Shown here piece after piece: positions 1,884 through 48,646 of a stretch of DNA of 54,420 nucleotides. The position numbers and the translations under genes are program-made. The first letter of the stretch is position 1. The number at the start of each line of letters is the position of its first letter. The stretch comes from Candidatus Liptonbacteria bacterium RIFCSPLOWO2_01_FULL_56_20 (lineage in GTDB: Bacteria > Patescibacteriota > Minisyncoccia > UBA6257 > 2-01-FULL-56-20), in contig MHLC01000026.1 in NCBI GenBank assembly GCA_001818655.1, positions 1-54,420 on the forward strand, written 5' to 3'. A model generated the notes under the pieces. The model ran no database searches. It had not been told where the DNA came from and was given only the letters and a program-made list of their open reading frames with translations.

Positions 1884-3422
1884 TCAGAGCCCGGTCGTCG
1901 TGAACGTTTGTTCGCTTGAAGTCGCGACGTTACCCGACGCGTCTCTTGATTCAGCCGCGAAGTAGTAGGTGGTCGTGGCGGTGAGTCCCGTAAGCAAGAG
2001 CGAGTGGTCCGTGACGAGCGTCACATTCTCCATGGAGAGCGTGGAGGTCGCCGTAAGTACGAGCGGCGTCACGGTCGAGTAGTAGACCTTGGTCGTCCCT
2101 GGCTCGTTCGTGGTCCAGTTTACCGTCGCATTCATCGAGCTCGGCGTTGCGGTGAGCGCAGAGATGACCGGCGGCGTCGTGTCAGGAAGCGCGAGCGTGA
2201 CCACGATCTGATCGGATGACGTTGCGGTATTTCCTGATGCGTCCTGTGACTGAATCCGGAAGTGGTACGTGGTCGCCGGCAGGAGTCCTAAGATCATCTG
2301 TCCGTGGCTTGCGACGAGCACCGTATCAAGCGTGGTGCTTGAGCCGTACGCCGTGGTCGTGCCGTAGAACATCCGCGAATTTGCCGGTTCGTTCGTGACC
2401 CAGCTCACTGCGACCGACGAAGTGCTGGGCGATGCCGCGATGCCCGAGATGACTGGTGCCGTGACATCTGCGACCGCGAGCGTGACAAAGGTCTGGTCAG
2501 ACGAGGTGGCAAGATTGCCGGCTGCGTCGCGCGACTGAACCTGGAAGTGGTACGTGGTCACCGGCGAGAGGCCGCTTAGGGTCTGCGCGTGTCCCGTGAC
2601 GAGCGTGCCGTCAAGCACCGTGCTTGAGCCGTACGCCGTGGTCGCGCCGTAGAAGACCTGCGAACTCGCCGCTTCATTGGTAGCCCATGTTATCGCTGTC
2701 GAGGATACGCTTGGCGATGCCGCGACGCCGGAGATGGCAGGCGGAATGACGTCGGTGGTAGAAGTGGGAGAAGGCGGCAGTTTCTTTATGATGCCGGGCG
2801 GCAGGATCTGACAGACGGGGACGAGCGGTTTGTCGTGCTTCCGCAGCCACCCCGGCGCGATGAGATGTCCTGGAGGGACGATCGCGCAGAGCCGGCCAGC
2901 GGTCCCCGACGCATTTATAATGATAGCCATTTTTTTGGCATCGCTATCGTCGTCATCGTCATCATCGCGCGAAGATTCGATGCCGAGCGGATGCTCCTCA
3001 AAATACTCGTTCAGCTTCTTCAGCGTTTTCGGGCCGACGAATCCTACCTGTTCGATCCCGAACTTTTTCTGGAATCGCTTCACCGCGTTTGCGGTGAGCT
3101 GGCCGAAGTAGCCCGTGACGAGCCCCTCGGGATAGATCTCCGCGTCTGCGGCAAGGAGCGCCTGGAGCGTGCTTACCTCATCGCCCCGCATGCCCTCCCG
3201 GAGCATGGTAAGGAGCTGGGAGACCGTTTGCTGTTTCTGTATCTCGAGCTGCTGGATCTGCGCCTGGAGCGTTTTGATCTGCTGCAAGAGGGCCGCTATC
3301 TGCGCCTGAAGCGCGGCCACGCTTGAACTCGAGGTTTGCGCGAGCGCCGTTCCTCCCGGCGCGAGGTTAAGGAGGAGGACCGCCGCCAAGCCTAATGCAA
3401 TGCGTTTCATGTGTGTATGCAT
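1884..3422 (-). CDS. secreted surface protein: signal peptide, Q-rich coiled coil, peptidoglycan-binding domain, poly-Asp linker, three FN3-like repeats
   Basis: Signal peptide MKRIALGLAAVLLLNLAPGGTALAQ. PG_binding_1-like segment LQALLAADAEIYPEGLVTGYFGQLTANAVKRFQKKFG. D7 tract at aa 153-159. Three ~95-aa repeats (aa 224-318, 319-413, 414-512) share the pattern ...ISG.AASPS..S..V.W.TNE...S...YG.T.AYGS......H...L.GL...T.YHF...S.DA.GN.ATSSDQ. Confidence 0.8.
   Translation of the reverse strand: MHTHMKRIALGLAAVLLLNLAPGGTALAQTSSSSVAALQAQIAALLQQIKTLQAQIQQLEIQKQQTVSQLLTMLREGMRGDEVSTLQALLAADAEIYPEGLVTGYFGQLTANAVKRFQKKFGIEQVGFVGPKTLKKLNEYFEEHPLGIESSRDDDDDDDSDAKKMAIIINASGTAGRLCAIVPPGHLIAPGWLRKHDKPLVPVCQILPPGIIKKLPPSPTSTTDVIPPAISGVAASPSVSSTAITWATNEAASSQVFYGATTAYGSSTVLDGTLVTGHAQTLSGLSPVTTYHFQVQSRDAAGNLATSSDQTFVTLAVADVTAPVISGIAASPSTSSVAVSWVTNEPANSRMFYGTTTAYGSSTTLDTVLVASHGQMILGLLPATTYHFRIQSQDASGNTATSSDQIVVTLALPDTTPPVISALTATPSSMNATVNWTTNEPGTTKVYYSTVTPLVLTATSTLSMENVTLVTDHSLLLTGLTATTTYYFAAESRDASGNVATSSEQTFTTTGL
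1887..2753 (-). repeat. three tandem ~285-nt coding repeats (FN3-like modules)
   Basis: Repeat boundaries were derived from the protein repeats within CDS 1884-3422. The repeats are divergent at DNA level. Confidence 0.7.
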
Positions 3423-3620
3423 GATTTTTTTATGTTTTTTCGACTTTTCGACCGTTCTAAATACTCTAATACAAACGAAGCAAACAAGGAAATGTTACAT
3501 ATTTGCGTATGTGCGGGATTTTCATAAAGCGATCCGCCCGGTTCATATATGGAGAGCCGGGCGGCGAAGGGCAAAACGTGTGCTGCCCATTGCATTGCAA
3601 CGGGCAGCGTTGTGCGCGGT

Positions 3621-3959
3621 TCAGGCGTGCTGATCGGGTCGCAGCGTCTCGCCCGGCCGCTTGAGGCCTAGGCTCGCGTAGGCCTGATCAAGGTAGATAT
3701 GGTTGTCCGCGAGGTCGGGCCGGCCTCGCATCTCGGGGTCTTGCCAGTGCCAGTGTCGCATCCAGATCTCGGAGAGCACCCGGAAAGCGCCTTCGAGCTT
3801 GTCAGCTGCTTCGGCAGCGGCAAGGATGGTCGCGATGGTGATCTGCCCCGTGAAGCAGAACCGTCCCACCATCTCTTTCGCTTCGTCGAGCCGGTCCGCC
3901 GGAATCTGTTCCCGGAGAAAGTTCTCGATGCGCGAGTCAAGCGTCTGCGATTCGGTCAT
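3621..3959 (-). CDS. hypothetical protein (112 aa)
   Basis: Internal ATG at 3959-3957 (MTESQTLDSRIENFL...) is preceded by GAGAGGTGG (SD-like). The longer 160-aa ORF would run into the tmRNA promoter. No family recognised. Confidence 0.55.
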   Translation of the reverse strand: MTESQTLDSRIENFLREQIPADRLDEAKEMVGRFCFTGQITIATILAAAEAADKLEGAFRVLSEIWMRHWHWQDPEMRGRPDLADNHIYLDQAYASLGLKRPGETLRPDQHA

Positions 3960-10705: not shown

Positions 10706-10845
10706 GTAAAGCGTACCTTGATAATGCTTGGCTGCGCGCTAGAAGGCTTGATATTATTGAGCCCTCTGGCGCGCAACCAATGCAATCCGTCTACCTAAAA
10801 AGCTTCGTATAGTGCGAGGTAAGGGGTAGGCAAAGGAGTGAGGTC

Positions 10846-11436
10846 ATGGAAAAGATGAGCGTAGGACAGGCTCGGGAGCTACACAGCCGCTTGGTGCGGT
10901 GCGCCCCCGACGACTTGGACACCGATCTCGCGCAGGCATTGAACGACGCCTCGCCCGAGATCATCCGCGAGTTCCTCGCTGGGCTGAAGACCCTTCAGGT
11001 CTTTTGCTCTGTCCCCGAGGACGGCGAGGAGTTCGAGCTCTCGCTCGACGGCAACGCCGTAGACCCGCTGGCGATGGTCCGTAAGGACGGCTACAGCGGG
11101 GAGTGGCAGTTTAACGGGCCGAAAGTGGAGGGAGTTCAGACCCGCCGCTTCCAGCTCGTCCGTTTGGGATACTGCCCTAACCTCGACGAGGCCAAGGCGA
11201 AAGCCCAAACCCGGGGTTACCGGCTCGCCGAGGGTGAGTGGCGGGAGGCTTTCCGCAAGAGGTTTCTTCGCCCCGCCGTTGGCGACCTTATCGCCTTCGG
11301 TGGTTCCGGGTGGACGTACCCGAATGGCGACCGCAACTTCCCGTATCTCGACGAGAGCGACGGAGCGTGGGACTCGGACTTCGACTGGGTTGGCAGCGGG
11401 TTCGACGAGGACTGGCGGTGGCTCGTGAGCAAGTAG
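10846..11436 (+). CDS. DGR target (variable) protein, 196 aa, C-terminal CLec/DUF1566-like variable region
   Basis: AAGGAG SD upstream. The C-terminal 44 aa (GSGWTYPNGDRNFPYLDESDGAWDSDFDWVGSGFDEDWRWLVSK) are encoded by the VR. No signal peptide or TM is visible. Confidence 0.85.
   Translation: MEKMSVGQARELHSRLVRCAPDDLDTDLAQALNDASPEIIREFLAGLKTLQVFCSVPEDGEEFELSLDGNAVDPLAMVRKDGYSGEWQFNGPKVEGVQTRRFQLVRLGYCPNLDEAKAKAQTRGYRLAEGEWREAFRKRFLRPAVGDLIAFGGSGWTYPNGDRNFPYLDESDGAWDSDFDWVGSGFDEDWRWLVSK
11302..11433 (+). repeat. DGR variable region (VR)
   Basis: Aligns at an offset of 529 nt with 11831-11962. In a hand alignment, 13 mismatches were found, 11 of them at positions that are A in the downstream copy. 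Confidence 0.85.
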
Positions 11437-11488
11437 CGGGACTTGGAGCCTCGGGCGCTTGGCGTTCCATTGGCCCCTCGGTTCCTTC

Positions 11489-11520
11489 GGCCTCGCACGG
11501 TCAATATGACGTGCGAGGCC
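11489..11520 (+). terminator. GC-rich hairpin downstream of VR (terminator and/or DGR target-recognition stem-loop)
   Basis: GGCCTCGCAC-ggtcaatatgac-GTGCGAGGCC, a 10-bp perfect stem followed by TTTCGTTTT. Confidence 0.5.
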
Positions 11521-11549
11521 TTTCGTTTTACAGGTAAGAGGCGACAGCC

Positions 11550-11578
11550 TTGTGTTTCAATACTAGTGGCGATAGAAT
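11550..11578 (+). promoter_or_regulatory. candidate promoter for the TR RNA
   Basis: TTGTGT (11550-11555), 17 nt, TAGAAT (11573-11578), about 250 nt upstream of the TR. Confidence 0.35.
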
Positions 11579-11830
11579 AATTTACGGAGAGTAGATTAAT
11601 AGAAGCCCGCGGCTACGGTTTCGGGCGATCAAAATCCGAGATTTGTCGTATGCGGAGTAGCATCGGGTACGCCTTGTGCTAGCGTCATCCTCAATCTCCA
11701 AAAAACAAAAGCTACTTGGTACCAGGCGCCAGCGAGTTTTTAGACTCCAAATACGATACAATCCGGAGACCGGCCCGCCAACATAGTGCGGCACTCAACG
11801 GACGGTGGCGCAGATGGCGTCTGGTATATT

Positions 11831-11962
11831 GGTTCCGAGTGGACGAACCCGAATGGCAACCGCAACTTCCCGTATCTCGACGAGAACGACGGAGCGTGGA
11901 ACTCGAACTTCAACTGGGCTGACAACGATTTCGACGAGAACTGGCGGTGGCTCGTGAGCAAC
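11831..11962 (+). repeat. DGR template region (TR)
   Basis: The adenine-rich copy of the VR, with AAC codons at most variable positions (GAAC, GCAAC, GAGAAC, TGGAACTCGAACTTCAAC, GACAACGAT, GAGAAC). Not a plausible CDS in its own right. Confidence 0.85.
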
Positions 11963-12366
11963 TACTTTTGTTCCCCGCCTCTGGCGGGGTTTATTATTGT
12001 ATTGACCTGTTTCTGCCAGCCGCCGAGCATTCTGCCAATTTCAGAGAGGTTTTCTGATAGGGCTATATATTTTTTATTGTCCAAAGCCTTGATCTCCCAG
12101 GCGATTTGCAGAAAGAATTTCAAGGAGTCCAGCTTGGCACTGGCCTCAAAAATGACCGGCAATTTTCTCTCCCCGGGTAAGCGACTCGCTGTAAAAACAA
12201 GTTCAATCATTTCCGTGAACAGGCCGTCAATTTTCCCGCCCAGCGTGTAGCGCGAGGTCTTGGGAAAATGCGGCAGGAATTCGTGCCATAGTTTGTAGGC
12301 GGCAATCAGGCGCTGGATGATGGATAAATTGTTCCTGCGGGGGGGGCTTACTGGTAAAGAATTCAT
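11962..12366 (-). CDS. avd: DGR accessory variability determinant (Avd; four-helix-bundle protein)
   Basis: MNSLPV...SIIQRLIAAYKLWHEFLPHFPKTSRYTLGGKIDGLFTEMIELVFTA...LDSLKFFLQIAWEIKAL...LSEIGRMLGGWQKQ shows a typical Avd / 23S-IVS four-helix-bundle pattern. Start chosen at the internal ATG at 12366-12364. Confidence 0.85.
   Translation of the reverse strand: MNSLPVSPPRRNNLSIIQRLIAAYKLWHEFLPHFPKTSRYTLGGKIDGLFTEMIELVFTASRLPGERKLPVIFEASAKLDSLKFFLQIAWEIKALDNKKYIALSENLSEIGRMLGGWQKQVNTIINPARGGEQK
11973..11999 (+). terminator. terminator-like hairpin immediately 3' of TR (inside the avd C-terminal codons on the other strand)
   Basis: CCCCGCC-tct-GGCGGGG (11973-11989) followed by TTTATTATTG. Confidence 0.4.
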
Positions 12367-13342
12367 GAAAAAATTTGATTGCAACTTTGAGCGGATGGTA
12401 AGCGTGGAAAATCTACTGGACGCTTGGCAGGAATTCGTCCGCGGCAAGCGGGCGAAGCCGGACGTGCAGGAATTCTCTCTGCGGCTTATGGATAACATTT
12501 TACAGCTCCATCATGAACTTGTGAACCGAACCTACCGGCACGGCGGCTACCAGTCGTTCAACATCTCCGACCCGAAGCCGCGAAACATCCATAAAGCAAA
12601 CGTCCGCGACCGACTCCTGCACCACGCCGTCCATCGCATACTCTACCCCCTCTTTGACCGGACATTTATCGCCGATTCCTATTCCTGCCGTTTAAGCAAA
12701 GGCACACACAAAGCCATTAACCGCTTTAGGGCGTTCGCCTACAAGGCGAGCCGCAACCACACCAGGACCTGCTGGGTTTTGCAATGCGATGTCAAAAAGT
12801 TTTTCGCCAGCGTTGATCACAGGGTCTCGCTGGATATCCTCAAACGCTACATATCGGATACTGACATTATCCGGCTCTTGCGAGAAGTTGTCGGCAGTTT
12901 TCACTCCGGCATTCCGGGCAAGGGTTTGCCGCTCGGCAATCTCACTTCCCAGCTTCTGGCCAATGTATATATGAATGAGCTTGATCAGTTCGTGAAGCAC
13001 AAACTCAAAATAAGGCATTACATCCGCTATGCGGACGATTTTACGATTTTATCCGAGAACAAAACCTTACTGGAGAGTTTAACCCCGCAGATAGACGGTT
13101 TCCTCCGTCAAAACCTTAAACTGGAATTGCATCCGGACAAGATTTGCATGAAAACCATCGCTTCCGGCGTGGATTTCCTGGGCTGGGTGCATTTCCTCGG
13201 CCACCGAGTTTTGCGGACGGCAACGAGGAGGCGGATGCTGAAACAGATTGCGGAACATCCTGCGCCGGAGACACTGATTTCGTACGCTGGCCTTCTGCGG
13301 CACGGGAATGCGTACAAGCTCCTCGCGTCTTTAGGATTTTAG
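12365..13342 (+). CDS. DGR reverse transcriptase
   Basis: VENLLDAW, DPKPRNIHKANVRDRLLHHAV, CDVKKFFASVDH, LPLGNLTSQLLANVYMNELD (the DGR-specific LGxxxSQ motif), YIRYADDFTIL (YxDD), GVDFLGW. Start ATG at 12365 (alternatives 12317 or 12395). Confidence 0.9.
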   Translation: MKKFDCNFERMVSVENLLDAWQEFVRGKRAKPDVQEFSLRLMDNILQLHHELVNRTYRHGGYQSFNISDPKPRNIHKANVRDRLLHHAVHRILYPLFDRTFIADSYSCRLSKGTHKAINRFRAFAYKASRNHTRTCWVLQCDVKKFFASVDHRVSLDILKRYISDTDIIRLLREVVGSFHSGIPGKGLPLGNLTSQLLANVYMNELDQFVKHKLKIRHYIRYADDFTILSENKTLLESLTPQIDGFLRQNLKLELHPDKICMKTIASGVDFLGWVHFLGHRVLRTATRRRMLKQIAEHPAPETLISYAGLLRHGNAYKLLASLGF

Positions 13343-13401
13343 TTTGCGGCTACGAAGATTCTCCGCTATTATTCAGTCATTACGAAGAGGATAATCCAAT
13401 A

Positions 13402-16400
13402 ATGTTTTTTGGAGAAAATTTCAAACTGCCCGAAGTAGAGGAAAAGGTCTTGAAGTTCTGGAAAACAAACCGGATCTTCGAGAAAAGCCTGGCGCAGACC
13501 AGAAACGGAAAACCCTTCACCTTCTATGACGGGCCGCCTTTTGCGACCGGCCTGCCGCACTATGGCCATATCCTCGCCTCGACCATCAAGGATGTGATAC
13601 CGCGCTATCAGACGATGAGGGGGCGGTTCGTCCGTCGCCGCTGGGGCTGGGATTGTCACGGCCTGCCCGTCGAGGAGATCGTGGAGCGGAAGCTTGGCAT
13701 CTCCGGCAAGAAGCAGATCGAGAAAATTGGCATTCGGAGATTCAACGAAACGTGCCGGAACACGGTGCTTGAGTTCGTGAACGAGTGGAAAAAGACGGTC
13801 GAGCGGATCGCCCGCTGGGTGGAGTTTGATAACGCATACAAGACGATGGATCCCGACTATATGGAATCGGTCTGGTGGGCGTTCAAAGAGATGCATGAGA
13901 AGAACCTGATCTACGAGGGACGGAAAGTGCTTATGTATTGCTCGCGGTGCGAGACGCCGGTTTCGAACTTCGAGGTGGCGATGGACAACTCCTACAAGGA
14001 CGTGACAGAGGAGGCGGTAACCGTAAAGTTCAAGGTGAGGCCGGGTCAAGGCGTCGGCCGCTCGAAGCTTCCCAAAGATACATATCTTCTGGCTTGGACA
14101 ACGACGCCGTGGACTCTGCCGGGGAACGTTGCGTTGGCAGTAGGGGAAAAAATCAGCTACACCGCGCTTCGTACGCGGGGATCGAAGGAGTTATATGTCG
14201 TGGCGAGCGCAGCCGTGCCGAAACTTTTTGCGAAACAGGAGATAGAGGTCGTGCACCAGGACATCGCTGGGAAAGACCTGGTGGGCTTGGCCTACGAGCC
14301 GCTCTTTGACGTACCAGCGGTGCGGTCGGCGAAGGCGTTCAGGATTTATTCCGCCGATTTTGTTGCGATGGACGAAGGAACGGGCATCGTGCACACAGCC
14401 GTGGTCTATGGCGAAGAGGACTATGTACTAGGACAGAGGGAGGGCCTCCCGGTCGTGCCGCTCCTTGACGAAAAGGGAAAGTTTAATGATAGGGCGCCGA
14501 AGTTCCTGTGCAACACATACTTTAAGGACGCGGACCCATTGATCGTTGCCAATCTCGAGAGGCGCAAGCTTCTCTTCCGTAAGGAAAAACAGACGCATTC
14601 CTATCCGCACTGCTGGCGGTGCGGTACGCCGCTCTTCTACAACGCCATTCCCGCCTGGTTTGTGAATATTCAGAAAATGAAAAAGCAGCTCATTGCCTCG
14701 AACGCGAGAGAGATGCACTGGTACCCCGCGCACTTAAAGCATGGCCGTTATGAGAACAGCGTGAGAGAGGCGCCAGATTGGAATATTTCCCGCAACCGGT
14801 ATTGGGGGAATCCGATTCCGGCGTGGAAGTGTGAGCGGTGCGGTCGGACAGAGGTCATCGGGAGCTTGGACGAGCTTTCGGAACGCACCGGTGGGGCAAA
14901 AAACCATTACTGGGTCCTCCGGCACGGATTTGCGGAGTCCAACCTCGCGCGCACCATTGATTCCGGTCAGAGGCAATTCCACCTTACCCCTACGGGAATT
15001 ATGGAGGTAGAGACGGGCATCGCTAAGTTTAAGAAGGAACTTGCCCGTCACGGAGAAAAGATTGACCTTATCGTTTCCTCAGACATCCTCCGTGCTAAGG
15101 AGAGCGAGGCGGTTGCGGCGAAGGCGCTCGGCGTCAAAAAAATCAGTTTTGACAAGCGGCTGGAGGAAATTCGTTTGGGGAAGGGACTTTCGGGGTGCCA
15201 TGACGCGCAGTACCACAAACAATATCCGACCTATGAATCAAAGTTCGAAGAGCGCCCTAAGGGAGGCGAATCCCTAAGAGATCTTCGTGCGCGGGCATGG
15301 GGGCTTCTTGGGGGGCTTGAGGAGAGGCATCGCGGCAAGAACATATTGCTCGTGAGCCATGAGTATCCGATCTGGATGCTCTTTCATACAGGCGAGGGAT
15401 GGAGCGAAGAGCGGGCGATCACGGAAAAGAAAGGGCGGGGGGCGGATTTTATTGAAACCGGGGAGGTGCGTGAGTTGCGTTTCAGGGCCGTGCCACGCAG
15501 CGAAACCGGCGAGGTGGATCTCCACCGGCCTTATATCGATGAGATTACTCTGCGATGCAGGAAATGCGGCGGGAAAGCAAAGCGAATCGCAGAGATTTTT
15601 GATTCGTGGACCGAAGCCGGTTCGATGCCCTTCGCGGAGTACCACTACCCTTTCGAGAATAAAAAGACGTTCGAGAATAGATTCCCCGCACAATTCGTGG
15701 CCGAGTACATCGCGCAGACCCGGGCGTGGTTCTATGTGATGCATGTGGTTGGCCTCGCCCTCTTCAAAAGGGCGCCTTTCGAGCACGTGGTCACGACTGG
15801 TACCATTCTTGCGGAGGACGGCTCGAAGATGTCGAAGTCAAAAGAAAATTACCCTGACCCGTGGAACGTCATCGGAAAGTACGGCGTGGATGCACTCCGT
15901 TTCTATCTGATGAGTTCAGTCGTGATGCAGGCCGACAATTTGAACTTCAACGTACGGGATCTCGAAACGGCGTACCGTAGAGTTATCGTCACTCTGTGGA
16001 ACGTGTACAACTATTTTGCCATCTATGCGGGGGCGGCGGAGCGGAGCCGCGCCGGCCGCGTGAAGAAAACAGTCTTGGATAAGTGGATTGACGGCCGCAG
16101 AGAAGAATTAGTTCGGGCGGTAACGAGCCACATGGAGTCTTATGATACCGTGCGCGCCACGAGAGCGATCGCGGAGTATATTGACGATCTTTCGCGATGG
16201 TATCTGCGGCGCAGCCGAAAGCGAACCGACGCGGCGTTTTTTATCACGCTCCGTGATGCTCTTTTCACCGCAAGTCGAGTGATTGCTCCATTCATGCCAT
16301 ATCTTGCCGAGGTGCTCTATGGGAATATTGTGGGGCATACCACAGGAAGCAAGCATCCTGTGTCGGTGCATCTCGTTTCTTGGCCGCGGGCGGACAAGCG

Positions 16401-16920
16401 ACTGATTAACAAGAGATTGTTCAGTAAAATGGTTGAGGTGCGGCGGCTTGCAAGCGTTGCGCTCGCAAAACGCGCAGAGGCCGGTATTAAAGTGCGTCAG
16501 CCGCTGTCCGTGCTCAAGATCAAAACTCAAAAGACGGGAGTGAAGCTGGATAAGGAACTGCTCGGGATTTTAAAAGAAGAAGTGAACGTGAAAGAGGTCG
16601 TGTTTGATAAAAAACTCAAAGTGGAGGTTGAACTTGACACGAACATCACGCCGGAGCTGCGTGAAGAAGGGTTGCTCCGCGAGCTCGTCCGTATGGTCCA
16701 GGACCTGCGTCAGAAAGCTGGGCTAAGGCCCAGGGACAAGATCGTGCTCCTTGCGGAATTGCCTAAGGAAATGAGAGCCGCGGCAGTAAAACAAGAGGGT
16801 GCGCTCAAACGCGAAGTGAACGCGAGAGAGGTTCAATATAAGAAGTCGGATAAGTTCATCGCAGAGGCGCAGACAAAAACCGACGAAGGAGAGGCGTGGC
16901 TCGGGGTAAGAAAGAGTTAG
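13402..16920 (+). CDS. ileS: isoleucine--tRNA ligase (type 2) with an inserted histidine-phosphatase-like domain
   Basis: Start ATG at 13402 (MFFGENFKLPEVEEKVLKFW). PPFATGLPHYGHIL (HIGH), WTTTPWTLPGN (editing domain), KMSKSKEN. 1172 aa, about 100-130 aa longer than I recall for type-2 IleRS. The extra segment at 14899-15516 carries RHG...SH motifs. Confidence 0.9.
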   Translation: MFFGENFKLPEVEEKVLKFWKTNRIFEKSLAQTRNGKPFTFYDGPPFATGLPHYGHILASTIKDVIPRYQTMRGRFVRRRWGWDCHGLPVEEIVERKLGISGKKQIEKIGIRRFNETCRNTVLEFVNEWKKTVERIARWVEFDNAYKTMDPDYMESVWWAFKEMHEKNLIYEGRKVLMYCSRCETPVSNFEVAMDNSYKDVTEEAVTVKFKVRPGQGVGRSKLPKDTYLLAWTTTPWTLPGNVALAVGEKISYTALRTRGSKELYVVASAAVPKLFAKQEIEVVHQDIAGKDLVGLAYEPLFDVPAVRSAKAFRIYSADFVAMDEGTGIVHTAVVYGEEDYVLGQREGLPVVPLLDEKGKFNDRAPKFLCNTYFKDADPLIVANLERRKLLFRKEKQTHSYPHCWRCGTPLFYNAIPAWFVNIQKMKKQLIASNAREMHWYPAHLKHGRYENSVREAPDWNISRNRYWGNPIPAWKCERCGRTEVIGSLDELSERTGGAKNHYWVLRHGFAESNLARTIDSGQRQFHLTPTGIMEVETGIAKFKKELARHGEKIDLIVSSDILRAKESEAVAAKALGVKKISFDKRLEEIRLGKGLSGCHDAQYHKQYPTYESKFEERPKGGESLRDLRARAWGLLGGLEERHRGKNILLVSHEYPIWMLFHTGEGWSEERAITEKKGRGADFIETGEVRELRFRAVPRSETGEVDLHRPYIDEITLRCRKCGGKAKRIAEIFDSWTEAGSMPFAEYHYPFENKKTFENRFPAQFVAEYIAQTRAWFYVMHVVGLALFKRAPFEHVVTTGTILAEDGSKMSKSKENYPDPWNVIGKYGVDALRFYLMSSVVMQADNLNFNVRDLETAYRRVIVTLWNVYNYFAIYAGAAERSRAGRVKKTVLDKWIDGRREELVRAVTSHMESYDTVRATRAIAEYIDDLSRWYLRRSRKRTDAAFFITLRDALFTASRVIAPFMPYLAEVLYGNIVGHTTGSKHPVSVHLVSWPRADKRLINKRLFSKMVEVRRLASVALAKRAEAGIKVRQPLSVLKIKTQKTGVKLDKELLGILKEEVNVKEVVFDKKLKVEVELDTNITPELREEGLLRELVRMVQDLRQKAGLRPRDKIVLLAELPKEMRAAAVKQEGALKREVNAREVQYKKSDKFIAEAQTKTDEGEAWLGVRKS

Positions 16921-47304: not shown

Positions 47305-48646
47305 CGGCGGGCCGGACAGGTGCGTGAACGCCGCACACGCGCTTTTGGTGATCGCAACGCTCAGTTTGGTTTGGCGCGCCTGGCATACGGGGAGCATTTA
47401 CATCGCCCCCATCCTGGTCCCGGAGCTTTTTATCCTTAGCGCTGGTTTCGTGCTTGCGGTCTGTGCGTGGCGTTCGTCTCTGCCGCGCGCCGGAGAGTTT
47501 GCCGCGTCTATTATAAGACAGTACTGGTTTCTGATCATTTTACTCGCGGCGCCGCTTCTCGGTCTCTTGGGAAGCTCGCTCGCCGGACTCGCGTGGGGAA
47601 TGTACTCGTTCCGTGTCGCGATCGATTATGCCTTTCTCCTCTTCGCGCTGCTCTTTTTCGTCATCGCCGCCTACATCGCTTTTGCCCGCCCGCGCACTCT
47701 CAAGGCGGTTTTCGCCGCAATTGCGATCTCGTCCGTTCCCTTCTGGCTTGCGCTCCATCGTTCGTGGCAGCCGCTTTTTCTCGTTCAAGGCAACCGGCTC
47801 CGCGGGGCGGGAAGCGACCCCAATCAGCTTGCTACGTGGATCGCCGTGGGGCTTATCGTGTCGATCGGTTTTTTTCTTTGGGAGCGCGGGAGAGTCCGGT
47901 GGTGGTGGTTCGCGGGCGGTGTTGTGAACGCGCCGCTTCTTCTCTGGACAGCTTCCCGGGCGGGGTGGTTTACGGCGGCGGTCATCCTCCTCGCCGGGGG
48001 GGTCTTCTTCCTCGCGGAGAGGTTTTCGCGCGAGAGAGTCCGTCTTTTAGGGACGGCGTTCCTCGGCATTGCGGCCTCGCTCGTCATCGGATTTTTTCTT
48101 TTCCCCATCCCATCGCGTGTAGTCATTGCGACGCGCGCGGCGAGTCCGTTCGTCAGCGACGAACAGCTTGCCCTCATCACGCGCTGGGTCGCGGGAGGAA
48201 CAGAGGCTGTCCCTACGTTTGAGATCCCATCTGACAATCGGACGCGGCTTCTACAAGAAGGAACGACGATGCTTCTCCGTTCGCCTCTCGGTTTCGGGCC
48301 CGCGTACTACCTTTGGAATCCAGTCGCCGTTACGGGGAGTGAGTACCGGCTGGGGGTCCATAACGCATGGCTTGATATCGGGCTTACCGCGGGCTGGCTC
48401 GGACTCGGCGCGTGGGCGTTCTTCATGGTTGTGGTGGGGCGCGGGGCCGTGCGTCTTGCGCGGCGTGGGGAGCCTCAATTCCTCGCGCTCGCGGCCTCTT
48501 TTTTCGCCCTCCTGCTGTTCGGGTTTTTCCTGGGCATGTTTACCGTGCGCTGGTTTTGGCTTATTATGGGGCTAGTTGCGGCGTATTCAATGTTGGACGG
48601 TCGGGGCGAGCTTGCGCCCGCACATGAAAAGCAAAAAGAATCGTAA
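47291..48646 (+). CDS. O-antigen ligase / polymerase-like membrane protein
   Basis: 451 aa, polytopic, WTASRAGWFTAAVILLAGG (Wzy_C-like). Confidence 0.65.
   Translation: MAQRSGGPDRCVNAAHALLVIATLSLVWRAWHTGSIYIAPILVPELFILSAGFVLAVCAWRSSLPRAGEFAASIIRQYWFLIILLAAPLLGLLGSSLAGLAWGMYSFRVAIDYAFLLFALLFFVIAAYIAFARPRTLKAVFAAIAISSVPFWLALHRSWQPLFLVQGNRLRGAGSDPNQLATWIAVGLIVSIGFFLWERGRVRWWWFAGGVVNAPLLLWTASRAGWFTAAVILLAGGVFFLAERFSRERVRLLGTAFLGIAASLVIGFFLFPIPSRVVIATRAASPFVSDEQLALITRWVAGGTEAVPTFEIPSDNRTRLLQEGTTMLLRSPLGFGPAYYLWNPVAVTGSEYRLGVHNAWLDIGLTAGWLGLGAWAFFMVVVGRGAVRLARRGEPQFLALAASFFALLLFGFFLGMFTVRWFWLIMGLVAAYSMLDGRGELAPAHEKQKES

Follow-up and report, generated by a model that had tools for sequence, protein, structure and literature searches.

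Diversity-generating retroelements (DGRs) are abundant in the candidate phyla radiation (CPR, or Patescibacteria), and we know of no mechanistic account of a DGR other than that of one phage element of a different layout. In a Bordetella phage, the 140-nt spacer between the template repeat (TR) and the reverse transcriptase (RT) gene, brt, is indispensable and contains the elements for priming and for the binding of RT and Avd, and stem-loops just downstream of the TR have been predicted in 207 of 278 Avd-type DGRs, those of CPR included (Handa et al., bioRxiv 10.1101/2023.10.23.563531). In architecture B3, which makes up 90% of the CPR DGR set of Wu et al. (2018, NAR 46:11; PMC5758913), the order is TR-(avd)-RT, where avd is encoded by the reverse strand. 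Here we analyze the DGR found in a stretch of 54,420 nt (hereafter, the window) from Candidatus Liptonbacteria bacterium RIFCSPLOWO2_01_FULL_56_20 (contig MHLC01000026.1, positions 1 to 54,420).

The layout of this locus is the catalogued architecture B3, and its inverted avd is not new. An earlier interpretation based on the letters of the window (the sequence-only reading) had called the layout non-canonical, which is right relative to the phage DGR BPP-1 but not otherwise. Two elements of the locus, a leader RNA 5' of the TR and a simple-sequence repeat at the avd/RT junction, are apparently undescribed and conserved family-wide. Comparing these elements across related loci, we consider it fairly probable that this CPR-type B3 DGR is wired as separate transcription units, with Avd made phase-variable through the repeat. 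In the literature that we searched, to which the CPR DGR survey of Paul et al. (2017) did not belong, we found no paper tying DGRs or avd to homopolymers, repeat tracts, phase variation, covariation or a leader 5' of the TR. Nor did we find a mechanistic study of the layout, in agreement with the sequence-only reading on this point.

The cassette and its relatives

The locus is a complete DGR, with RT-clade motifs, adenine-biased differences between the TR and the variable repeat (VR), Avd, the initiation-of-mutagenic-homing sites (IMH/IMH*) and a post-VR inverted repeat all present. Its parts are:

10846..11436, plus strand: DGR target gene, an open reading frame (ORF) of 196 aa whose 3' end is the VR
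11301-11435, plus strand: VR, ending at the target stop codon
11489..11529, plus strand: GC-rich inverted repeat after the VR, read from the sequence, with arms 11489-11499 and 11510-11520, then TTTCGTTTT
11830..11964, plus strand: TR, a 135-nt direct repeat of the VR
11962..12366, minus strand: avd, 134 aa in the G8 allele, between TR and RT; its stop is the reverse complement of 11962-11964 (TAG) and its ATG that of 12364-12366
12365..13342, plus strand: reverse transcriptase of the DGR, 325 aa; motifs LGNLTSQ and YADD, which fit the [LIV]GxxxSQ and YxDD of the DGR clade

VR and TR are 90% identical across 135 nt. TR adenines account for 11 of the 14 mismatches, all 11 in the first or second codon position of the target ORF, and the same adenine-biased pattern was seen in at least 55 relatives. 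The IMH*-like, GC-rich 3' end of the TR (11940-11961) is identical to the VR, and the two diverge from 11962. The RT matches RVT_1 in Pfam at 8e-24 and has as its best PDB match the Bordetella phage bRT (8ub7_A, 9.7e-42); it is 100% identical to a 325-aa NCBI protein of a Candidatus Liptonbacteria metagenome-assembled genome. The RT start at 12365 is backed by homologues, most of 21 beginning at the aligned MK(I/K)QL. The avd product matches Pfam bAvd (PF22296; E 5.4e-16; 59.5 bits, cut-off 40), with the domain covering residues 18 to 121. A PDB sequence search with Avd returned no significant match, and the target protein had no match in Pfam.

According to the sequence-only reading, an inverted avd fills the interval between TR and RT, its stop overlaps the last TR-homologous bases, and the two genes share a palindromic start. 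The ORF coordinates and the bAvd match confirm that avd occupies the whole interval, and the avd stop (11962-11964) does sit on the final TR-homologous bases, the TR ending at 11964. The start codons interlock as described, the avd ATG (12366-12364) and the RT ATG (12365-12367) sharing 2 nt within GAATTCATGAA. This shared start holds for the G8 allele of this strain but is not a family feature, because the head-to-head distance of the predicted starts varies among relatives, from overlaps to gaps of ~80 nt. In the window, ATG 12366 is the sole canonical start for full-length avd, besides an in-frame ATG at 12498.

Comparison with related CPR cassettes, the check that the sequence-only reading had put forward, shows that the inversion is general. 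We fetched 80 Patescibacteria loci with RTs 60-70% identical, 73 of which have upstream DNA; avd is conserved, on the minus strand and directly upstream of the RT in 73/73. The order VR, non-coding stretch (mostly ~230-430 nt), TR and inverted avd was found in the 58 loci in which both VR and TR could be located, and in most of these the avd stop lies -38 to +12 nt from the TR end (mode -7). In ~22 of the Patescibacteria loci, no canonical start occurs in the avd frame. One locus (L025, CAVYJB010000001.1) has two avd matches and two leader-RNA matches ~1.6 kb apart (~600-1360 and 2300-3950), which points to two DGR cassettes in tandem or to a duplication of leader/avd.

A structured RNA around the template

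The TR RNA is probably a transcript of its own, ending ~35 nt past the TR and separate from the RT mRNA, because the TR comes with a promoter-like box, a structured leader and a terminator-like hairpin after it. The features concerned are:

11550..11578, plus strand: promoter-like site for the TR RNA (consensus match only), TTGTGT, 17 nt, TAGAAT, with the -10 at 11573-11578
11581..11829, plus strand: structured leader RNA 5' of the TR, ~230 nt, helices P1-P5
11605-11613/11618-11626, plus strand: leader helix P1
11650-11652/11686-11688 plus 11658-11667/11672-11681, plus strand: leader helix P2
11719-11730/11816-11827, plus strand: leader helix P3, long-range, 12 bp
11734-11737/11744-11747, plus strand: leader helix P4
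11762-11765/11799-11802, plus strand: leader helix P5
11704..11711, plus strand: 5' strand of duplex P0, AACAAAAG, immediately 5' of P3
11965..11972, plus strand: 3' strand of duplex P0, CTTTTGTT, directly after the TR and opposite the last avd codons (E-Q-K)
11973-11989, plus strand: GC hairpin CCCCGCC-TCT-GGCGGGG, with TTTATTATTG to 11999, inside the avd 3' coding tail

The stretch between VR and TR is conserved across loci. The promoter-like site of the window aligns with a conserved TTTTTGnTAnAAT box of the extended -10 type (TGnTAnAAT), located ~230-240 nt upstream of the TR in most relatives. It is preceded by the post-VR inverted repeat (11489-11520), which starts 53 nt past the target stop. 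Followed as it is by a T-run, this GC hairpin is the likely terminator of the target gene, and in relatives the equivalent hairpin with T-run directly precedes the promoter-like box.

Downstream of the box, the leader shows extensive covariation. RNAalifold, applied to an unfitted MAFFT alignment of 39 loci, yielded 42 pairs, 38 of them with compensatory double changes. The leader cells were paired in 95.4% of cases, versus 67.1% in shuffled alignments (0/500) and 40-48% with the partners slid, and the covariation score was 0.867 versus 0.296 among the controls. The window sequence itself forms all of the helices P1-P5. We built a covariance model (R1) from the leader alignment and obtained 71 matches in 536 kb, all on the plus strand and ending at the TR start, with one match per cassette, including more than 30 loci outside the training set; the window matched with 169 bits (E 2e-45). 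An Rfam scan of 10800-13400 on both strands, with E up to 1, gave no match to leader, TR or spacer. The structure is visible by comparative analysis only, the single-sequence fold of 11586-12000 being uninformative (z -0.73).

Two further observations concern the leader. The conserved 12-nt loop of P5, GAGAGTATTCAA, is split in the window (11765-11799) by an extra hairpin of ~22 nt, CCGGCCCGCCAACATAGTGCGG, and differing insertions occur at the same point of the loop in six other loci (L011, L024, L027, L043, L062 and L069). Because these insertions differ between loci at one point, the P5 loop appears to be a variable-stem site. We also considered a pairing of CCGCC, the antisense of the Avd GG codons, with a conserved GGTGG upstream of the TR, and discarded it after a by-eye check across loci showed no covariation.

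A long-range duplex, P0, joins the two sides of the TR. Across loci, the 8-11 nt that follow the TR are paired with a part of the leader located immediately 5' of P3; the mean is -7.2 kcal/mol for native duplexes and -4.3 when the partners are non-native (Wilcoxon p 3e-10). There are many compensatory variants, such as AAAATGAAGAT/ATCTTCATTT, AAATACA/TGTATTT and CATACGA/TCGTATG. P0 was found only after alignment inspection and with narrower segments; in a broad duplex scan of 60 nt upstream against 140 nt downstream of the TR, native and non-native combinations did not differ (p 0.29). Since the 3' strand of P3 stops 2 nt before the TR and the P0 strand starts right after it, the TR would be clamped between the two helices.

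Immediately after P0 comes the hairpin. A hairpin with a T-rich tail (at least 6 T in 9 nt) lies 0-16 nt after the TR in 47 of the 58 loci, compared with 1.1% of random windows. Among these hairpins there are 44 distinct stems of 7-11 bp with varied inner pairs; their loops measure 3-8 nt and are tetraloops in 14/47. They look like intrinsic (Rho-independent) terminators in form, and the window hairpin (11973-11999) was also picked up as a terminator-like match. Together with the 3' strand of P0, the hairpin opposes the last ~9 avd codons (~12 with the T-rich tail), past the end of the Pfam domain. Further into avd, four-fold and wobble sites are unconstrained (1.3-2.0 bits), and by this measure RNA-level conservation in antisense avd is limited to the first ~35 nt after the TR. 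The sequence-only reading had left a choice between a DGR RNA spacer made of antisense avd and separate transcripts for TR RNA and RT mRNA. What emerges is a mixture, in which the spacer is antisense avd for those ~35 nt, the rest of antisense avd is unconstrained, and a separate TR RNA is probable.

Three points weigh against a separate TR transcript. The -10 box of the window lacks the TG extension, and promoter, terminator and transcript ends are predicted from consensus and conservation. In addition, the hairpin could be purely protein-binding, with read-through into the RT, as the BPP-1 model predicts. Taken as an Avd-binding stem-loop only, like the one at spacer (Sp) positions 3-33 of BPP-1, the hairpin would carry its T-run incidentally, as the code for the Lys/Asn-rich tail of Avd. 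Both its position and its 7-11 bp stem fit this explanation, as do the stem-loops that Handa et al. predicted in most Avd-type DGRs, but the T-rich tail following the stem in 47/58 loci and the loops of 3-8 nt, not mainly tetraloops, make it somewhat unlikely. Moreover, the terminator and Avd-binding roles are mutually compatible.

The repeat tract at the avd/RT junction

The second conserved element lies at the other end of avd:

12339..12346: simple-sequence repeat 18 nt inside avd; the plus strand reads G8, the avd strand C8 across codons 7-10 (S-P-P-R)

The tract ends 19 nt short of the RT ATG. In 71 of 75 loci, the plus strand has a G-run that ends ~20 nt ahead of the RT ATG, and of the four exceptions three have (GA)n or (GT)n at this position. 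We widened the survey by 80 metagenome loci, so that 158 loci had sufficient DNA upstream; at the junction, 141 of them have a tract, either a G-run or (GT)n/(GA)n, and one of the two dinucleotides takes the place of the G-run in 15 of the scanned loci. The distance from the tract end to the RT ATG is fairly constant (17-25 nt). G/C runs of this length are otherwise rare: the tract is the lone run of at least 8 in the 54-kb window, and of the 73 such runs counted across 482 kb of related loci, 69 fall at the avd/RT junction. The only other G/C run of at least 7 in the window is a G7 at 47996-48002. Within the run, the Pro codons are CCC in 67/67, whereas elsewhere in avd Pro codons use all four third bases (1.95-1.99 bits) and four-fold codons in general vary freely (1.3-2.0 bits). 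Selection thus acts on the nucleotides of the run and not on the encoded peptide.

We next describe three observations made at the same site. In the G8 allele both strands are open across the tract (window 12317-12364); an RT extended from an in-frame upstream ATG (12317 or 12320) through the G-run, MMDKLFLRGGLTGKEF-MKK..., finds no support among homologues. In L019 (~630-650), the tract position holds a stretch of N and then a very long poly-C, so assemblers appear to break there. In several unrelated loci (L041, L055, L109 and L183-L185), a short palindromic insertion, GAACCCCGTTAGAAA...TTTCTAACGGGGT, lies between the tract and the RT ATG and looks like a miniature inverted-repeat element targeting the avd/RT junction.

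We then compared, for 14 strains, contigs with identical RT protein or near-identical flanks. In seven of the 14, tract length differs between contigs that are at least 99.85% identical over 1.3-2.8 kb, and in every variable strain the tract is the only indel. For the strain of the window there are three alleles, G8 in the NCBI genome, G9 in one ENA and one JGI assembly, and G7 in another ENA assembly; these contigs have 0-1 mismatches and no indel outside the tract over 1.4-2.8 kb. A Sungbacteria strain shows a whole-unit change, (GT)8 versus (GT)9, and in five further strains the tract differs by plus or minus 1 G. Assembly error is an improbable source of these differences, because one change is a whole GT unit, G9 was recovered in independent assemblies, and no indel lies outside the tract.

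The length differences have direct consequences for the avd frame. In the strain of the window, G8 keeps ATG 12366 in the avd frame (ON); with G7 or G9 this ATG falls out of frame (OFF), and avd is left without a canonical start. The frame behaves in the same way in L120 (G8, ON) versus L117/L119 (G9, OFF), and likewise in L110 versus L111; in L104 and L105, avd starts at different ATGs. Of 112 non-redundant loci, 24 lack a canonical in-frame avd start; each of these does have such a start upstream of the tract, in a different frame. We suggest that avd is probably phase-variable through tract length.

This suggestion has to be weighed against several other results. Seven of the 14 strains show no length variation, and homopolymers can be miscalled in consensus assemblies. 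An upstream start occurs in frame 0 in 42, in frame +1 in 51 and in frame +2 in 49 of the 112 non-redundant loci, so that frame 0 is not enriched, and in 75/112 a TTG or GTG downstream of the tract is a potential avd start. Because of the unenriched frame and the possible downstream starts, the tract may in many loci belong to a 5' untranslated region (UTR) or a promoter and not to the ORF.

A promoter or 5'-UTR role of the tract, for avd or for RT, is in fact a serious alternative here, if an unlikely one. The tract would then lie between divergent promoters or leaders of avd and RT and tune one or both by spacing. This would account for its fairly constant distance to the RT ATG, for the substitution of dinucleotide tracts in some loci, for the distribution of frames, and for the possible TTG/GTG starts, which often follow an AGGA-like motif. 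However, a conserved TTG just downstream of the C-run had to be dropped as a general avd start, since in many loci, the window among them, this Leu is encoded by TTA. The strain of the window and L117/L120 have no canonical start downstream, so there a length change must frameshift avd. Finally, neither consistent RT promoter hexamers nor a -10/-35 pair was seen around the tract across loci.

Proposed wiring and comparison with known systems

Taken together, the leader, the hairpin and the tract suggest the following wiring. The target gene would end in the VR, followed by a GC hairpin with T-run. A dedicated promoter-like box would then drive a non-coding DGR RNA of ~400 nt, made up of leader, TR, P0 strand and GC hairpin with U-tract, in which P3 and P0 clamp both TR ends. 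The post-TR hairpin would stand in for the Avd-binding stem-loop and probably also terminate the transcript. Most of the protein-binding scaffold would thus be shifted 5' of the TR, leaving an antisense-avd spacer of only ~35 nt within the non-domain C-terminal tail. avd and RT would be expressed divergently from the head-to-head junction, where a slipped-strand event that adds or removes one repeat unit would bring the lone canonical avd start into frame or take it out, and may affect the 5' region of RT as well. Avd supply, hence mutagenic retrohoming, would be phase-variable within a population. Termination, protein binding and on/off switching, like the transcript ends, are read here from conservation.

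The sequence-only reading placed the avd and RT promoters in each other's coding sequence. Overlapping starts do require the promoter of each gene to lie in the coding or 5' region of the other. For avd, we found one candidate:

12497..12525, minus strand: candidate avd promoter, TTCACA, 17 nt, TAAAAT, inside the RT coding region, a 10/12 consensus match

Its -10 opposes conserved 'IL' codons of the RT, and TA[AG]AAT occurs at 17 of 44 such sites versus ~14% expected from codon usage. This minus-strand site (12525-12497) is a weak hint of an avd promoter, and the only one found.

A different arrangement would be a single BPP-1-like plus-strand transcript, running from the TR through ~400 nt of antisense avd into the RT, with antisense avd serving as a functional spacer that binds RT-Avd and primes the cDNA. 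It draws on the essential 140-nt spacer of the Bordetella phage (Handa et al.). TR and RT are co-directional here as well, and read-through of the hairpin is compatible with the present data. Nevertheless, we regard this arrangement as quite unlikely: the hairpin with T-run stands 0-16 nt after the TR in most loci, avd wobble positions beyond it are essentially free, the large covarying scaffold sits 5' of the TR instead, and the scan across 140 nt of antisense avd gave no native-specific duplex signal. It is highly improbable that the G-run is kept only for a proline-rich Avd N-terminus, with its length differences being assembly errors, for although the run encodes Pro in the avd frame and short-read assemblies are error-prone at homopolymers, the invariant CCC codons, the dinucleotide replacements, the whole-GT-unit polymorphism, the G9 of two independent assemblies, the lone indel between near-identical contigs and a bAvd domain beginning only at residue 18 all speak against it.

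Extending the proposed wiring to CPR-type DGRs in general, we tentatively suggest that they are under stochastic on/off control by the avd/RT repeat, which would gate Avd and perhaps RT so that a subpopulation diversifies. Their template RNA would be an autonomous non-coding RNA of ~400 nt whose scaffold has moved to a 5' leader, freeing the TR-RT interval for the inverted avd. If this is true, one mutational switch controls another mutational system. A tract that gates Avd would also provide an ON/OFF marker of DGR activity, readable from sequence in uncultured bacteria and checkable in existing metagenomes by comparing tract length with VR heterogeneity. The leader with its P3/P0 clamp defines a minimal RNA for the reconstitution of a CPR DGR. 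It would also indicate that the DGR RNA scaffold can be rearranged around the template, which bears on the engineering of DGRs for targeted mutagenesis.

Two features flanking these elements complete the description of the locus. Between the VR and the GC hairpin (window 11437-11490, GACTTGGAGCCTCGGGCGCTTGGCGTTCCATTGGCCCCTCGGTTCCTTCGG), and at the same place in L001-L080, motifs resembling YTTGG, CTCGG or CTTAG recur loosely every 9-12 nt; Tandem Repeats Finder reported nothing in the post-VR region. These periodic motifs could have a role in target-site recognition during retrohoming. Just downstream of the RT is an isoleucyl-tRNA synthetase gene (13402-16920, plus strand, 1172 aa) in which, according to precomputed Pfam matches, a His_Phos_1 domain (PF00300) is inserted between tRNA-synt_1 segments.

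Among known systems, B3 has the same order and orientation of target/VR, TR, inverted avd and RT, in the same host group, with no difference in gene order; Wu et al. (2018, PMC5758913) do not mention promoters, non-coding elements, a repeat tract or a leader RNA. With the BPP-1 DGR (mtd-avd-TR-brt), the locus shares a homologous RT, the same Avd family, adenine-specific mismatches and a stem-loop right after the TR. In both, a duplex between sequences upstream and downstream of the TR clamps the template, and P0 corresponds to the cPRT Stop of BPP-1. The differences are in the arrangement. Here avd is inverted and downstream of the TR, and the upstream strand of P0 lies ~120 nt before the TR in a dedicated 230-nt leader, whereas the BPP-1 clamp strand is in the avd 3' end, adjacent to the TR. 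The downstream strand of P0 is at Sp 1-8, immediately after the TR, instead of ~Sp 59-70, where in BPP-1 a short stem-loop and A-minor adenosines come next. The BPP-1 stem-loop at Sp 3-33 has ~9-11 bp and usually a tetraloop, compared with the 7-11 bp and the minority of tetraloops of the hairpin here, which is followed by a terminator-like U-tract. We identified here no conserved 140-nt spacer, no RT-binding stem-loop before the RT and no primer adenosine equivalent to Sp A56 of BPP-1.

The tract finds its closest parallels outside DGRs. Simple-sequence-repeat contingency loci with poly-G/C tracts near ORF 5' ends occur in Neisseria, Haemophilus and Campylobacter. The avd tract resembles them in being a homopolymer of 8-13 nt within the first ~10 codons, in changing by plus or minus one unit between near-identical genomes, in having both in-frame and out-of-frame alleles, and in the conservation of the nucleotide run rather than the peptide. 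It differs from them in the gene concerned, avd, which is neither a surface nor a restriction-modification gene but serves a targeted hypermutation system as accessory factor, and it also lies 19 nt upstream of a divergent RT gene. Repeats can act by spacing as well: a poly-G tract tunes the porA promoter of Neisseria in this way, and a (TA)n tract does so in the overlapping divergent promoters of hifA/hifB in Haemophilus influenzae. The tract described here differs from that of hifA/hifB in being within or next to coding sequence, with no flanking promoter hexamers identified, but as in hifA/hifB the repeat lies between two head-to-head genes, and one tract could co-regulate both.

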